NCBI RefSeq assembly: GCF_050920415.1
Contig: NZ_CP169309.1
Length of the DNA stretch: 64,000 bases
Reading direction: 5' to 3' (one strand)
Origin: Escherichia coli
GTDB lineage: Bacteria > Pseudomonadota > Gammaproteobacteria > Enterobacterales > Enterobacteriaceae
The notes beneath the pieces were generated by a model. It did not search any database. It saw only the letters and a program-made list of their open reading frames with translations, and was not told where the DNA came from. The position numbers and the translations under genes were made by a program. Each line of letters begins with the position of its first letter. The first letter of the stretch is position 1. Positions 993-57,424 of the stretch are shown one piece after another.

Positions 993-1760
993 TTGATACC
1001 CGTAGAGCGTCGCCAAATCATCCTTGAGATGGTAGCTGAAAAAGGCATTGTCAGTATTGCTGAACTAACGGACAGAATGAATGTGTCACATATGACCATT
1101 CGTCGGGATTTACAAAAACTGGAGCAGCAGGGAGCCGTTGTGCTGGTGTCCGGAGGCGTCCAGTCTCCGGGACGCGTGGCGCATGAACCTTCTCATCAGG
1201 TAAAAACTGCGCTGGCAATGACGCAAAAAGCGGCTATTGGCAAGCTGGCGGCAAGTCTTGTTCAGCCGGGAAGTTGTATCTATCTGGATGCGGGAACGAC
1301 CACGCTAGCGATAGCACAGCATCTGATTCACATGGAGTCACTGACTGTGGTCACAAACGATTTCGTTATTGCGGACTACTTGCTCGACAACAGTAATTGC
1401 ACAATTATTCACACTGGCGGTGCAGTGTGTCGGGAAAACCGTTCCTGTGTCGGGGAAGCCGCTGCGACCATGCTGCGCAGCCTGATGATTGATCAGGCTT
1501 TTATTTCTGCATCGTCATGGAGTGTGCGGGGGATTTCTACGCCAGCGGAAGATAAAGTCACGGTGAAACGGGCGATTGCCAGTGCCAGCCGCCAGCGAGT
1601 TTTGGTCTGTGATGCGACGAAATATGGTCAGGTGGCGACATGGCTGGCGTTACCATTAAGCGAGTTTGATCAGATTATTACAGACGACGGTTTGCCGGAG
1701 AGTGCCAGTCGCGCGCTGGCGAAGCAGGATCTCTCTTTGCTGGTAGCGAAAAATGAATAA
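993..1760 (+). CDS. ygbI: DeoR-family transcriptional regulator
   Basis: ORF 963..1760; HTH-containing N-terminus (IVSIAELTDRMNVSHMTIRRDLQKLEQQG). Probable TTG start at 993 preceded by AAGGAG gives 255 aa; ATG at 963 is the alternative. Confidence 0.85.
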   Translation: MIPVERRQIILEMVAEKGIVSIAELTDRMNVSHMTIRRDLQKLEQQGAVVLVSGGVQSPGRVAHEPSHQVKTALAMTQKAAIGKLAASLVQPGSCIYLDAGTTTLAIAQHLIHMESLTVVTNDFVIADYLLDNSNCTIIHTGGAVCRENRSCVGEAAATMLRSLMIDQAFISASSWSVRGISTPAEDKVTVKRAIASASRQRVLVCDATKYGQVATWLALPLSEFDQIITDDGLPESASRALAKQDLSLLVAKNE

Positions 1761-7964: not shown

Positions 7965-8975
7965 TTAGCATATACGCGGAAGCGGTTCGGCGTGTGGTAA
8001 ATCGAGGGTTCGTTTCACGCCATACAGACCGGCAAGACGAACACCTTTACGTTCCACCACTTCACCAATCAGCGCCGCGTCTTTCCCCAGTGGATGGGAA
8101 TGTAACGCCGCCAGCACTTGCTCTGCTGCGTTGCGTTCAACGGCGATCACCAGTTTGCCTTCGTTGGCAAAGTTAAGGGCGTCCAGCCCCAGCAGTTCGC
8201 AAACGCCGCGCACGGCAGGTTTAACCGGCAGTGCCGCTTCTGAAATTTCAATACCACAACCGCAGGCTGCCGCGAACTCATGAACTACCGCGTTCACTCC
8301 ACCACGGGTGGCGTCACGCAGTGCCTTCACACCGGGAATATCACGCAGCGTCTGGATGAGCGGCGTCAGCACTGCGCAGTCGCTGACCAGTTCGCCATCC
8401 AGCCCCAGTTGCTCGCGCAGATTAAGAATAGTTGCTCCGTGGTCGCCGAGAGTTCCACTCACCAGCAGAACATCGCCTGCGGTTAGCGTCTGTGCGCCCC
8501 AGTGAATATTCGCCGGGATCGCGCCCATGCCAGCGGTGTTGATAAACAGTTTATCTGCCGCGCCGCGTTGCACCACTTTAGTGTCGCCAGTAACGATGGC
8601 AATGCCTGCCGCGCGGGCGGTTTCTGCCATGCTGGTCACCACGGCTTTTAGCGTCTCCATCGGCAATCCCTCTTCGAGGATAAAGCCACAAGAGAGATAG
8701 CGCGGAATAGCGCCACTGACCGCAACGTCATTCGCGGTGCCACAAATCGCCAGCTTGCCAATATTGCCACCAGGAAAGAACAGCGGGTCGATGACGTAGC
8801 TGTCGGTGGAGAACGCCAGCCGGTCGCCTTCTGCCACCAGCTGCGCCAGCTCAAGGCGCGCCTGGTCTTCCTGTTCTGCCAGCCACGGATTGGCAAAAGC
8901 TTCCATAAACAGGCTGTTGATTAATTGCTGCATCGCCTGGCCGCCGCTGCCGTGGGCGAGTTGGATATTATTCAC
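7965..8975 (-). CDS. hypE: [NiFe]-hydrogenase maturation protein HypE (carbamoyl dehydratase)
   Basis: 336-aa ORF; AIR-synthase-like fold; C-terminal PRIC. Confidence 0.95.
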   Translation of the reverse strand: MNNIQLAHGSGGQAMQQLINSLFMEAFANPWLAEQEDQARLELAQLVAEGDRLAFSTDSYVIDPLFFPGGNIGKLAICGTANDVAVSGAIPRYLSCGFILEEGLPMETLKAVVTSMAETARAAGIAIVTGDTKVVQRGAADKLFINTAGMGAIPANIHWGAQTLTAGDVLLVSGTLGDHGATILNLREQLGLDGELVSDCAVLTPLIQTLRDIPGVKALRDATRGGVNAVVHEFAAACGCGIEISEAALPVKPAVRGVCELLGLDALNFANEGKLVIAVERNAAEQVLAALHSHPLGKDAALIGEVVERKGVRLAGLYGVKRTLDLPHAEPLPRIC

Positions 8976-10093
8976 GCTTCACTCTCCTGCTGACGATACT
9001 GATACCACGCGGCGCATGCTCCTTCGGAGGAAACCATCAGCGCGCCAAACGCGGTTTGAGGATTACAGGTGTTACCAAACAGCGGGCATTGATGCGGCTT
9101 ACATTTGCCCGTCAATACTTCGCCACAACGTGCGCGCGGGTCATCGCAAACCTGCTGCGGTGCCGGGCGGAAATGCGCTTCGGCGTCAAATCGTTGATAG
9201 TCTGGCGTCAGGTGTACACCAGAAGATTCAATCACGCCTAAGCCGCGCCATTCGCTGTCGCCGTTGACGCAGAAGACATCCGCAATCGCCTGTTGCGCCA
9301 GCAGGTTACCGGCATCCGGCACCACGCGCCGATACTGATTTTCTACCTTGCTGTGGGCCGCTATTTTCTGCTCCACCAGCATGACCACGCCTTGTAGTAG
9401 ATCAAGCGGTTCGAATCCAGCAATCACCAGAGGACGATGAAAATCACTGGCGATAAAATTATAGGCGTCGGTGCCGATAACCATACTGACGTGACCCGGC
9501 GCGAGGAACGCATCGATACCGTTATCCGGCTGTTCCAGCAAACTGCGTAGCGTTGGGATCAGCGTAATATGCTGGCAGAAAAAGTAAAAATTTTGCACAT
9601 CGCGGGCTTTCGCCTGTTGCAGAGTGATGGCCGTCGTCGGCATGGTGGTTTCAAACCCTAAGCCGAAGAACACCACTTTACGAGTTGGATTCTCCTGCGC
9701 CAGTTTCAACGCATCCATTGGCGAGTAAACGATGCGAACATCGGCACCGCGCGCTTTTGCCTGTAACAGCGACCCCTGTTTCCCCGGCACGCGCATGGCG
9801 TCTCCAAAGGTACAGAAGATGACTTCCGGATGGCTGGCAATCTCCACGCAGGTGTCGATTCTTCCCATCGGCAGTACACATACCGGGCAACCCGGACCGT
9901 GGATAAACTCAACGTTTTCCGGCAGTAACTGGTCGAGGCCGAATTTAAAAATGGCGTGGGTATGACCGCCGCACACTTCCATAATCCGCAGAGGGCGTTC
10001 AGCGGTGTAAGAGAGATGTGAAGCACGTTCGCGCAGATGCTCAATTAACTGCATCACCTGTTCCGGCGCGCGATATTCATCAACAAAACGCAT
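8972..10093 (-). CDS. hypD: [NiFe]-hydrogenase maturation Fe-S protein HypD
   Basis: 373-aa ORF; conserved CGxH and GPGCPVC motifs; 4-bp overlap with hypE. Confidence 0.95.
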   Translation of the reverse strand: MRFVDEYRAPEQVMQLIEHLRERASHLSYTAERPLRIMEVCGGHTHAIFKFGLDQLLPENVEFIHGPGCPVCVLPMGRIDTCVEIASHPEVIFCTFGDAMRVPGKQGSLLQAKARGADVRIVYSPMDALKLAQENPTRKVVFFGLGFETTMPTTAITLQQAKARDVQNFYFFCQHITLIPTLRSLLEQPDNGIDAFLAPGHVSMVIGTDAYNFIASDFHRPLVIAGFEPLDLLQGVVMLVEQKIAAHSKVENQYRRVVPDAGNLLAQQAIADVFCVNGDSEWRGLGVIESSGVHLTPDYQRFDAEAHFRPAPQQVCDDPRARCGEVLTGKCKPHQCPLFGNTCNPQTAFGALMVSSEGACAAWYQYRQQESEA

Positions 10094-44216: not shown

Positions 44217-44402
44217 ATGCTGATTCTGACTCGTCGAGTTGGTGAGACCCTCATGATTGGGGATGAGGTCACCGTGACAGTTTTAGGGGTAAAGGGCAAC
44301 CAGGTACGTATTGGCGTAAATGCCCCGAAGGAAGTTTCTGTTCACCGTGAAGAGATCTACCAGCGTATCCAGGCTGAAAAATCCCAGCAGTCCAGTTACT
44401 AA
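44217..44402 (+). CDS. csrA: Carbon storage regulator CsrA
   Basis: 61-aa [51 protein letters not shown]. Confidence 0.98.
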
Positions 44403-44626
44403 TCTTTCCGCGTCTCATCTTTATCGGTGAGACGCACCCTCAAAATTCCTCCTTCACTCCATTGTTTTTTCGCTTTACTCCCGTTCATTCAACTTTAGTC
44501 TCCATTTTTTGCATTACTGCTATCTGTCAGACCTCCGTTTTTCTGTTGATAAAACACTCTTTTTGACGTTTTTACAGACTAATTGAGCGTGAAGTGTGCA
44601 AACGATAAAAGTGTGGGAAAAATTGT

Positions 44627-44654
44627 TTGACTTATAAGTCTCAGAAAGTAATAT
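44627..44654 (+). promoter_or_regulatory. Candidate sigma70 promoter of the serV-argVYZQ tRNA operon
   Basis: -35 TTGACT (44627-44632), 16-bp spacer, -10 TAATAT (44649-44654). Confidence 0.6.
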
Positions 44655-44716
44655 GTGCGCCACGCAGCGACGATGAGCGATAAACAAGTTCTTCGAAGCA
44701 CTCGTAAGAGGCGTGT

Positions 44717-44809
44717 GGTGAGGTGGCCGAGAGGCTGAAGGCGCTCCCCTGCTAAGGGAGTATGCGGTCAAAAGCTGCATCCGGGGTTCGAATCCCCGCC
44801 TCACCGCCA
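44717..44809 (+). tRNA. serV: tRNA-Ser (anticodon GCU)
   Basis: 93-nt cloverleaf GGTGAGGTGGCCGAG...CGCCTCACCGCCA, long variable arm, anticodon loop CTGCTAA, encoded CCA. Confidence 0.95.
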
Positions 44810-44812
44810 TTT

Positions 44813-44889
44813 GCATCCGTAGCTCAGCTGGATAGAGTACTCGGCTACGAACCGAGCGGTCGGAGGTTCGAATCCTCCCGGATGCACCA
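44813..44889 (+). tRNA. argV: tRNA-Arg (anticodon ACG)
   Basis: 77 nt GCATCCGTAGCTCAGCTGGATAGAGTACTCGGCTACGAACCGAGCGGTCGGAGGTTCGAATCCTCCCGGATGCACCA. Confidence 0.95.
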
Positions 44890-45088
44890 TATTCTACGAA
44901 ATCTTCAGCGATGAAGGTGTCGAAGAGGTGGCGGTACTAACTGCAAGCACCAGGGAGGATAACGTTGCTTTAGCAACGGCCCGAAGGGCGAGCCGTAAGG
45001 CGAGTAATCCTCCCGGATGCACCATCTCTTACTTGATACGGCTTTAGTAGCGGTATCAAAAAATCTGCAGTAAAGTAAGTTTCCCGAT

Positions 45089-45165
45089 GCATCCGTAGCT
45101 CAGCTGGATAGAGTACTCGGCTACGAACCGAGCGGTCGGAGGTTCGAATCCTCCCGGATGCACCA
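45089..45165 (+). tRNA. argY: tRNA-Arg (anticodon ACG)
   Basis: Identical 77-nt sequence to the first copy. Confidence 0.95.
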
Positions 45166-45362
45166 TATTCTACGAAATCTTCAGCGATGAAGGTGTCGAA
45201 GAGGTGGCGGTACTAACCGCAAGCACCAGGGAGGATAACGTTGCTTTAGCAACGGCCCGAAGGGCGAGCCGTAAGGCGAGTAATCCTCCCGGATGCACCA
45301 TCTCTTACTTGATACGGCTTTAGTAGCGATATCGATATCAGCAGTAAAATAAATTTCCCGAT

Positions 45363-45439
45363 GCATCCGTAGCTCAGCTGGATAGAGTACTCGGCTACGA
45401 ACCGAGCGGTCGGAGGTTCGAATCCTCCCGGATGCACCA
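45363..45439 (+). tRNA. argZ: tRNA-Arg (anticodon ACG)
   Basis: Identical 77-nt sequence. Confidence 0.95.
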
Positions 45440-45637
45440 TATTCTCCGAAATCTTCAGCAATGAAGATATCGAAGAGGTAGCGGAATTAACCGCAGGCAC
45501 CAGGAGGGATAACGTTGCGCCAGCAACGGCCCGAAGGGCGAGCCGCAAGGCGAGTAATCCTCCCGGATGCACCATCTCTTACTTGATATGGCTTTAGTAG
45601 CGGTATCAATATCAGCAGTAAAGTAAGTTCTCCCGAT

Positions 45638-45714
45638 GCATCCGTAGCTCAGCTGGATAGAGTACTCGGCTACGAACCGAGCGGTCGGAGGTTCGAATCC
45701 TCCCGGATGCACCA
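45638..45714 (+). tRNA. argQ: tRNA-Arg (anticodon ACG)
   Basis: Identical 77-nt sequence. Confidence 0.95.
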
Positions 45715-45994
45715 TATTCTCCGTAATCTTCAGCGATGATGGTATGGAAGAGGCGATGGTAATCACCGTCTGCTCCAGGGAGGATAACGTTGCGGCAGCA
45801 ACGGCCCGAAGGGCGAACGCCAGTGAGTCATCCTCCCGGATGCACCATCTTCTCCAAAAAATCCCCTTCAAAAATATCTCATTTCTAAATAGCTACTTTA
45901 TCCATTTCCTGAATATTCTTCTCCTTCGCCATCAGCGACAAAATCAAGCAATTACGCTAAAGTAGCGTCATATTTTTCGACTTGCGAGAAGACC

Positions 45995-46561
45995 ATGTAC
46001 GAGCGTTATGCAGGTTTAATTTTTGATATGGATGGCACAATCCTGGATACGGAGCCTACGCACCGTAAAGCGTGGCGCGAAGTATTAGGACACTATGGTC
46101 TTCAGTACGATGTTCAGGCGATGATTGCGCTTAATGGCTCGCCCACGTGGCGCATTGCTCAGGCGATTATTGAACTGAATCAGGCCGATCTCGACCCGCA
46201 TGCGCTGGCGTGTGAAAAAACAGAAGCAGTCAGAAGCATGTTACTCGATAGCGTCGAACCACTCCCCCTTGTTGAAGTGGTGAAAAGCTGGCACGGACGT
46301 CGACCAATGGCTGTAGGAACGGGGAGTGAAAGCGCCATCGCTGAGGCACTGCTAACGCACCTGGGATTACGCTGTTATTTTGACGCCGTCGTTGCTGCCG
46401 ATCACGTCAAACATCATAAACCTGCGCCAGACACATTTTTGTTGTGCGCGCAGCGTATGGGCGTGCAACCAACGCAGTGTGTGGTCTTTGAAGATGCCGA
46501 TTTCGGTATTCAGGCGGCCCGTGCTGCAGGCATGGACGCTGTGGATGTTCGCTTGCTGTGA
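45995..46561 (+). CDS. yqaB: HAD-family sugar phosphatase (fructose-1-phosphate phosphatase)
   Basis: 188-aa ORF; HAD motif I FDMDGT. Confidence 0.92.
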   Translation: MYERYAGLIFDMDGTILDTEPTHRKAWREVLGHYGLQYDVQAMIALNGSPTWRIAQAIIELNQADLDPHALACEKTEAVRSMLLDSVEPLPLVEVVKSWHGRRPMAVGTGSESAIAEALLTHLGLRCYFDAVVAADHVKHHKPAPDTFLLCAQRMGVQPTQCVVFEDADFGIQAARAAGMDAVDVRLL

Positions 46562-48623: not shown

Positions 48624-48696
48624 AAAAAGGCCACTCGTGAGTGGCCAAAATTTCATCTCTGAATTCAGGGATGATGATAACAAATGCGCGTCTTTC
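48624..48696 (-). ncRNA. micA: MicA (SraD) small RNA, sigmaE-dependent, Hfq-binding
   Basis: Minus-strand sequence GAAAGACGCGCATTTGTTATCATCATCCCTGAATTCAGAGATGAAATTTTGGCCACTCACGAGTGGCCTTTTT matches MicA as I recall it, including the terminal hairpin plus U-tract. Confidence 0.9.
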
Positions 48697-57343: not shown

Positions 57344-57424
57344 GTAGACATGATAAGACGCGCCAGCGTCGCATCAGGCATTGTGTACAGAGCGGCGGAT
57401 GAGGCAAAAACGCCTTATCCGCCC
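57344..57424. repeat. REP-type palindromic elements (pair) between ygaY and proX
   Basis: GTAGACATGATAAGACGCGCCAGCGTCGCATCAGGCA and GCGGATGAGGCAAAAACGCCTTATCCGCCC. Confidence 0.7.

Follow-up and report, generated by a model that had tools for sequence, protein, structure and literature searches.

The repeated elements of an Escherichia coli tRNA-Arg(ACG) array are very probably tRNA-linked repeats

Introduction

In the stretch of Escherichia coli DNA analysed here (64 kb, hereafter the window), four tRNA-Arg(ACG) genes stand in tandem, and the spacers between them resemble one another and carry copies of the tRNA 3' end. What, then, are these spacers: debris of tRNA duplication, scars of integrated elements, coding sequence, or RNAs of a recognisable family?

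Organisation of the array

The locus corresponds to the csrA–serV–argV/Y/Z/Q–yqaB region of E. coli. Its 1.9-kb stretch 44400–46300 is 100% identical to strain MFDS1022581, and just one of 5,426 complete E. coli genomes lacks a related locus. An earlier note on this DNA had described a tandem array of identical tRNA-Arg(ACG) genes with near-identical spacers of about 198 bp, and this description is borne out. Specifically, all four genes share the same 77-nt sequence (ARAGORN, Rfam and sequence comparison), the inter-tRNA lengths are 199, 197 and 198 nt, the four units share 91% of their columns on average, and Tandem Repeats Finder returned a period of 274 bp with 3.8 copies and 92% matches over 44812-45850.

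Each unit is made up of the tRNA (77 nt), an element of 133–135 nt which starts directly after CCA, and a leader of 62–64 nt (Table 1). Each element ends by repeating the final 19–20 nt of tRNA-Arg. The presence of such tRNA 3'-end fragments had also been noticed before, but the elements that bear them are four and not three, the fourth being the trailer after the last tRNA, which still lies inside the 44813-45850 interval of the earlier note. The 19-mer AATCCTCCCGGATGCACCA occurs in seven exact copies, four in the tRNAs and three at 45006-45024, 45282-45300 and 45556-45574. With a single mismatch (cATCC...), an eighth copy maps to 45829-45847, where the TLR 4 repeat reads cATCCTCCCGGATGCACCA. 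The true length of the repeat is 20 nt, including the T that follows CCA (AATCCTCCCGGATGCACCAT), and this 20-mer gives eight matches (four in the tRNAs and four downstream, one of these with a mismatch) compared with 0.00 expected in shuffled sequences.

Table 1. Features of the serV-argVYZQ region and other RNA matches in the window. TLR, tRNA-linked repeat; the TLR assignment is the very probable one argued in the text.
Feature	Position	Strand	Support
Candidate sigma-70-like promoter 5' of serV, TTGACT-16-TAATAT	44627..44654	+	Consensus scan only
tRNA-Ser(GCU), serV	44717..44809	+	ARAGORN, Rfam; synteny with K-12 serV
tRNA-Arg(ACG) copy 1, argV position	44813..44889	+	ARAGORN, Rfam
Probable TLR 1, 135 nt, K-12 raV orthologue	44890..45024	+	Rfam RtT 31.5 bits (cut-off 45), fold z = -5.1
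Position-1 type leader of next tRNA, 64 nt (...AAAAAATCTGCAG...)	45025..45088	+	
tRNA-Arg(ACG) copy 2, argY position	45089..45165	+	ARAGORN, Rfam
Probable TLR 2, 135 nt, no K-12 counterpart	45166..45300	+	99.3% identity to TLR 1
Position-2 type leader, 62 nt	45301..45362	+	
tRNA-Arg(ACG) copy 3, argZ position	45363..45439	+	ARAGORN, Rfam
Probable TLR 3, 135 nt, K-12 raZ orthologue	45440..45574	+	Rfam RtT 43.9 bits, fold z = -5.4
Position-3 type leader, 63 nt	45575..45637	+	
tRNA-Arg(ACG) copy 4, argQ position	45638..45714	+	ARAGORN, Rfam
Probable TLR 4, 133 nt, most diverged, K-12 raQ orthologue	45715..45847	+	Rfam RtT 27.9 bits, z = -2.9
Terminator-like hairpin and T-run before yqaB	45954..45978	+	Consensus scan only
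MicA sRNA	48625-48696	-	Rfam 83.9 bits
naRNA4/REP-type element	57347-57424	-	Rfam 63.5 bits

The candidate promoter at 44627..44654 is the sole site found on the + strand by the consensus scan of 44300-46100. MicA and the naRNA4/REP-type element are the only other matches of the window at Rfam gathering level. On the minus strand, ARAGORN also called a 'tRNA-Arg(tcg)' at 44833-44904 and at 45109-45180, antisense to the real tRNA-Arg genes, and weak Rfam Plastid-ycf2 matches fell on the same antisense strand. We discarded all these calls as artefacts of the near-palindromic tRNA arms.

Identity of the spacer elements

According to the account given by Stenum et al. (2021; PMC8144298), tRNA-linked repeats (TLRs) were first described by Egan and Landy in 1978 and catalogued by Rudd in 1999. 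E. coli K-12 carries 22 TLRs at ten loci, and their hallmark is a 3'-terminal stretch of 18–19 bp identical to the upstream tRNA or rRNA (PMC8144298). The strain table in the supplement of the same paper contains the entry 'Δ(argY/Z/Q, raQ/Z/V)' among the 22 K-12 TLRs; the TLRs of the Arg operon were therefore already named, as raV, raZ and raQ. Hence the spacer elements of the Arg array are already known, as a family catalogued in K-12 by 1999 and with named members at this very locus, a fact that had escaped the earlier note. The names are assigned to individual spacers from the supplement together with the positions of the long spacers in K-12, rather than from EcoGene coordinates.

The elements of the window show the features of this family. 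Each begins immediately 3' of the CCA of a tRNA-Arg, and the 3' repeat is identical at 19 of 19 positions in three of them (20 of 20 with the following T) and at 18 of 19 in the fourth. Moreover, they correspond to the catalogued raV, raZ and raQ of K-12, with which they share the locus, the positions, the tRNA-operon setting and the tRNA-identical 3'-terminal 19-20 nt. In K-12 the long spacers follow argV, argZ and argQ, with a bare 62-nt spacer after argY, whereas the window strain carries a TLR at all four positions, the additional one after argY being a 99.3% duplicate of the first. Identity to the K-12 elements at the same positions ranges from 85 to 94% (93.3% for TLR 1 against K-12 position 1).

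Taken together, the four spacer and trailer elements are, with high probability, the TLRs of the serV-argVYZQ operon, namely the counterparts of raV, raZ and raQ plus an extra copy at argY, which would be released as processed RNAs and whose repeats would drive change of the array at the DNA level.

Relationship to the Rfam RtT family

The relevant Rfam model is RtT (RF00391), built on the repeats of the tyrT operon, with a curated gathering threshold of 45 bits. This model matches all four elements, with 43.9, 31.5, 30.6 and 27.9 bits and E-values from 1e-6 to 1e-2, and none of the four reaches the threshold. The best score is that of TLR 3 (E = 1.2e-6), whose match, 45378-45574, begins inside the upstream tRNA. 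The Arg TLRs of K-12 score 31, 29.2 and 22.8 bits and those of E. cloacae 37.8 and 36.7 bits, while the five copies of the K-12 lys operon score 46.7-60 bits and the K-12 tyrT copies 133–137 bits.

Direct alignment of the Arg and Tyr elements revealed a near-identical core, ACGTTGC-loop-GCAACGRCCCGAAGGGYGA…GAGTAATCCTYCC, and each of the two types ends with the 3' end of its own tRNA. The alignment, the folds and the pair counts all point to the structure that characterises RtT, with conserved core hairpins and, as one strand of the closing helix, the copied tRNA 3' end. RtT (rttR) of the tyrT-tyrV operon and the Arg-type elements thus have in common the core hairpins, the GAGUAAUCC junction and the manner of closing the helix, here with a copy ending in ...CCACCA. 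They differ in that the Arg type lacks the GGUUCGA...GAGCGnAGCGAGA segment upstream of the core, has other 5' hairpins, scores 28-44 bits as against the 133-137 of the tyrT copies, and carries a 3' repeat which matches tRNA-Arg and not tRNA-Tyr.

In the canonical elements (Tyr, Lys, Pro) the T-stem 5' strand is copied 5' of the core, together with TTCGA. For this reason a canonical element looks like the 3' part of a tRNA with the core inserted in the T-loop, and the Arg(ACG) type is a shortened version of it (GGAGG-AU-core).

The Arg TLRs are not annotated in the RefSeq records sampled. Since they are unannotated there and missed by the Rfam RtT model by a few bits, automated pipelines can be expected to go on flagging them as odd; describing them is of little value as a discovery and of modest value as annotation.

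Predicted fold and covariation

The MFE z-scores of the four elements against shuffled controls are -5.1, -5.7, -5.4 and -2.9. The predicted fold comprises two 5' hairpins and a cloverleaf-like four-way junction, in which the copied tRNA 3' strand (AUCCUCCCGG) would form the closing helix with the upstream CCAGGGAGGAU. The copied segment includes the end of the T-loop, the 3' strand of the T-stem, the 3' strand of the acceptor and ACCA. Inside the junction are predicted the hairpins CGUUGC-loop-GCAACG and GCCC-GAA-GGGC, and a variable third one, GCC-GNAA-GGC. When two tRNAs and the spacer were folded jointly, the MFE structure mispaired the two identical tRNAs, an outcome that carries no information on the fold in vivo.

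A metagenome scan gave 45 loci, which together with the genome loci provided 53 distinct Arg-type TLRs. On the Arg-type alignment, RNAalifold did not recover the closing helix and proposed instead a trivial AUCC/GGAU hairpin inside the repeat; therefore, we tested the single-sequence structure explicitly, by applying the MFE structure of one window copy to 37 distinct Arg-type TLRs, whose sequences are related. In this set, 89% of the cells are paired, compared with 31–50% in slid controls, and compensatory changes occur at fourteen pairs, as exemplified by G-C/C-G flips in the third core hairpin and by the change of CGUUGC/GCAACG to CAUCGC/GCGAUG. The covariation score over these related sequences is 0.193, against 0.04–0.08 in the slid controls; the closing helix had no room to vary among these Arg-type sequences, as the search pattern had dictated its 3' strand. 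These compensatory base changes support a folded RNA for the Arg-type TLRs.

Distribution of the core beyond the Arg locus

Species-representative genomes were scanned with the core pattern GCNNCGRCCCGAAGGGYGA, which returned at least 120 loci. Of the 134 matches listed, 102 are chance matches with no tRNA nearby, and among the matches listed these fall mostly in GC-rich genomes. The informative ones, at least about 30 among the matches listed, lie 50–480 nt downstream of a tRNA, which among these same matches is Tyr, Lys, Arg(ACG), Pro or Arg(CCG); the hosts among them are Enterobacterales, Gilliamella (Orbales), Marinobacterium (Oceanospirillales) and a Halieaceae MAG. In most of the tRNA-linked matches the core is followed by 18–22 nt that repeat the 3' terminus of that tRNA, a few having no full copy, and most exceed the RtT threshold, including the five in the K-12 lys operon.

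Marinobacterium lutimaris (L070) carries two RtT matches of 89 and 101 bits, at 8770-8895 and 8947-9071 on the minus strand, behind tRNA-Arg(CCG). At the 3' end of the element just 11 nt match the upstream tRNA before the two diverge (…CTCCATCTGCACCA), and the M. lutimaris element is an exception to the identical 3' end that marks the TLRs.

A second setting is found in Pseudocitrobacter faecalis (L108 349-438; also L041, L134 and L098). Here, in an rrn operon, the core stands after the first 5S rRNA and before tRNA-Thr, and its two flanks, GAGAGTAGGAC ... AACTGCCAGGCATCAAATT, together make up a copy of the 5S 3' end split in two. The arrangement fits the 5S-linked TLRs (rrA/rrB/rrF) and again shows a core inserted in a copy of a 3' end.

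In Pectobacterium zantedeschiae (L105 about 1010-1190, minus strand; also L104, L110 (Kluyvera)), three tandem repeats of ~72 nt start right after a stop codon. In each, the hairpins of TLR type (CAACGTTGC-loop-GCAACGGCCCGAAGGGTG) come first, followed by a GC-rich hairpin and by AAAAACG...CGTTTTT, which resembles a terminator. Neither a tRNA nor any other known RNA was found near these tandem repeats; the core thus also occurs outside tRNA and rRNA operons.

Variation of the array among strains

To follow the array within the species we compared 24 E. coli genomes, that is, the window strain, K-12 and 22 genomes taken at even steps through the collection. The tRNA-Arg genes number four in 22 of them and three in the other two. 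The TLRs number four in three genomes, three in eight, two in six, one in six and none in one, strain 317 having zero TLRs at the Arg locus. The short spacers read exactly tRNA-CCA followed by TCTCTTACTTG..., with the tRNA directly joined to the leader and the 135 nt between the 20-nt repeats precisely lost. Where spacer 1 is short, it consists of nothing but the position-1 type leader, and leaders keep their positional identity across strains. With these exact junctions and counts (three to four tRNA-Arg genes and zero to four TLRs among the 24 genomes), two suggestions of the earlier note are supported, namely that the array is prone to copy-number change and that the tRNA 3'-end copies could serve as recombination substrates.

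Imprecise remnants were also observed. In O157:H7 PV15-279 (L003) and in LH85-a (L182), spacer 3 has shrunk to 102 nt and of the hairpins retains just the first. In the trailer of LF82 (L008), 22 nt have been deleted internally, and with them the 5' strand of the closing helix. In LF82, yqaB is annotated as a pseudogene. In E. coli FDAARGOS_1291 (L014 1187-2395), an IS4-like ISVsa5 transposase lies between csrA and serV, upstream of the promoter region, and the array of this strain also has four TLRs.

In the window, TLR1 and TLR2 are 99.3% identical, compared with about 93–94% between them and the position-1 TLRs of other strains. This greater likeness within the array indicates, as far as sequence identity can tell, that TLRs are copied between array positions. 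The 20-bp direct repeats on either side of each TLR, the identical 77-bp tRNA genes and the similar leaders would all drive change at the DNA level, of three putative kinds: TLRs would be lost precisely, TLRs would be copied from one position to another, and whole tRNA units would be gained or lost. The strain comparison gives a clear picture of how the array evolves, with precise deletion points, copying between positions and from none to four TLRs.

As for function, the supplement of PMC8144298 lists a constructed strain in which all 22 K-12 TLRs are deleted. Together with the lost copies and the remnants, this strain argues against an important function and for dispensable TLRs.

Alternative readings

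The same observations bear on a different account, in which unequal crossing-over and partial duplication of the tRNA left the spacers behind as a neutral by-product, and any RNA made from them has no selected structure or role. It would fit the frequent loss, the remnants and the copy-number change among strains, as well as the absence of a known TLR function and the presence of the strain lacking all 22 TLRs in the strain table (both PMC8144298). On the other hand, the non-tRNA part of the elements has no detectable similarity to tRNA-Arg. The earlier note had read each unit as a full tRNA plus a truncated pseudo-tRNA, and this proposal is not supported: a short internal complement and the terminal 19-20 nt are all that could be related to tRNA-Arg in the spacer, with no similarity detectable elsewhere, and what the spacer carries instead is the conserved TLR/RtT core. 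A pseudo-tRNA was rejected as the 5' parts of the TLRs, aligned locally to positions 1-58 of tRNA-Arg, scored no better than shuffled sequences, and neither ARAGORN nor Rfam gave a tRNA match inside the spacers. In addition, a near-identical core stands behind Tyr, Lys, Pro and Arg(CCG) tRNAs and 5S rRNA in Enterobacterales, Orbales, Oceanospirillales and a Halieaceae MAG, and the stems stay paired through compensatory substitutions while the loops vary. We therefore regard a neutral by-product as possible but unlikely. Unequal crossing-over, which the note had taken as the probable origin of the array, is insufficient alone, because it leaves unexplained the presence of one core behind Tyr, Lys, Pro and Arg tRNAs and behind 5S rRNA across several gammaproteobacterial orders.

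Far less probable is that the tRNA 3'-end repeats are attL/attR-type scars left by the integration of a phage or island, with the spacer as a remnant of the element. A displaced copy running from T-loop to CCA behind an intact tRNA gene is, as generally known, the classical signature of integration, and the repeat does begin in the T-loop, so that in this respect the Arg TLRs and att repeats are alike. Unlike att sites, however, the DNA between the repeats measures just 115 nt and contains neither integrase nor cargo, its ORFs being short and inconsistent; csrA and yqaB are the flanking genes; an array can hold as many as four copies, one for each tandem tRNA; the same conserved structured core recurs behind different tRNAs and 5S rRNA; and the interior complement to the repeat is predicted to form a helix with it.

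That the spacers encode a small arginine-rich peptide, like the Tpr 'protamine-like protein' annotated in the tyrT repeats, is scarcely credible and was rejected: the Tpr sequence (...CRRQRPEGRSAQR) does correspond to the conserved core and same-frame ORFs exist in TLR3 and TLR4 (MRQQRPEGR...), but in TLR1 and TLR2 the frame is closed by a TAG in the loop of hairpin A (TTG CTT TAG), the start, length and frame of the ORF differ among the four copies, and the variation tracks RNA pairing rather than codon positions.

Proposed processing of the TLR RNA

Taking the elements as TLRs, how would their RNA be made? By consensus matches, the operon would yield a single precursor, bounded by the promoter-like site (44627–44654) and the terminator-like hairpin (45954–45968). 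RNase P would cleave at the tRNA 5' ends, and RNase E in the U/A-rich stretch after every real CCA (between CCA and UAUUCU) and every pseudo-CCA (between CCA and UCUCUUACUU). Subsequently, 3' exonucleases would trim back to the helix-plus-CCA end, and each TLR would be freed as a structured RNA of ~135 nt with a tRNA-like, nuclease-resistant 3' end.

Co-transcription of the Arg TLRs with the tRNAs, and their release by tRNA-type 3'-end processing at the pseudo-CCA, are likely by analogy with the mapped ends of rttR, from the tyrT operon, and of the 5S-linked RrB. Transcription and processing into a discrete RNA have been demonstrated for rttR and for RrA/B/F. Specifically, rttR is annotated in K-12 as starting 7 nt after tyrV and ending exactly at the pseudo-CCA. 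The 5' end of RrB is an RNase E site 3 nt after the 5S rRNA and its 3' end lies 3 nt after the repeat, which its authors proposed to be an RNase E recognition determinant (PMC8144298). The earlier suggestion that the pseudo 3' ends could act as processing sites agrees with these mapped or proposed ends of relatives.

The comparison with RrA, RrB and RrF, the 5S-linked TLRs of rrnA/B/D, extends further (PMC8144298). Like the Arg TLRs, they finish in a duplicate of the 3' terminus of the stable RNA before them; they are co-transcribed with it, and their ends map beside RNase E-type sites. They bind Hfq and CsrA in vitro, whereas the 19 TLRs of tRNA operons, the Arg ones included, score <0.01 in the CsrA-binder prediction. 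Another RNA to be compared is 3'ETS-leuZ (Lalaouna et al. 2015, cited through PMC8144298), an sRNA sponge derived from the trailer of a tRNA precursor and left over when RNase E processes a tRNA operon transcript. It base-pairs with RyhB and RybB and, in the account of PMC8144298, is not described as a TLR. A claim linking rtT to the stringent response has been retracted.

Residual interest lies in TLR function and in the wide distribution of the conserved core. Speculatively, and with odds that we judge to be rather low, the TLRs, including the Arg copies, could be structured RNAs under selection in several orders of Gammaproteobacteria, combining a mimic of the 3' end of the upstream RNA with a conserved three-hairpin core. 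If so, the module would give any co-transcribed RNA a tRNA-like, exonuclease-resistant 3' end, and a TLR might also serve as a titrant or a readout of the enzymes that mature RNA 3' ends (RNase E, RNase T/PH, CCA-adding enzyme), scaled to the transcription of stable RNA. In that case the core found in Pectobacterium, in tandem repeats that follow the stop codon of an mRNA, would be the sign of an RNA module of more general nature, perhaps a mobile one.

Finally, as seen over 44300-44716, the tRNA operon lies directly 3' of csrA, and 5S-linked TLRs are reported to bind CsrA in vitro. This adjacency is probably a coincidence, because the TLRs of tRNA operons are predicted not to bind CsrA.
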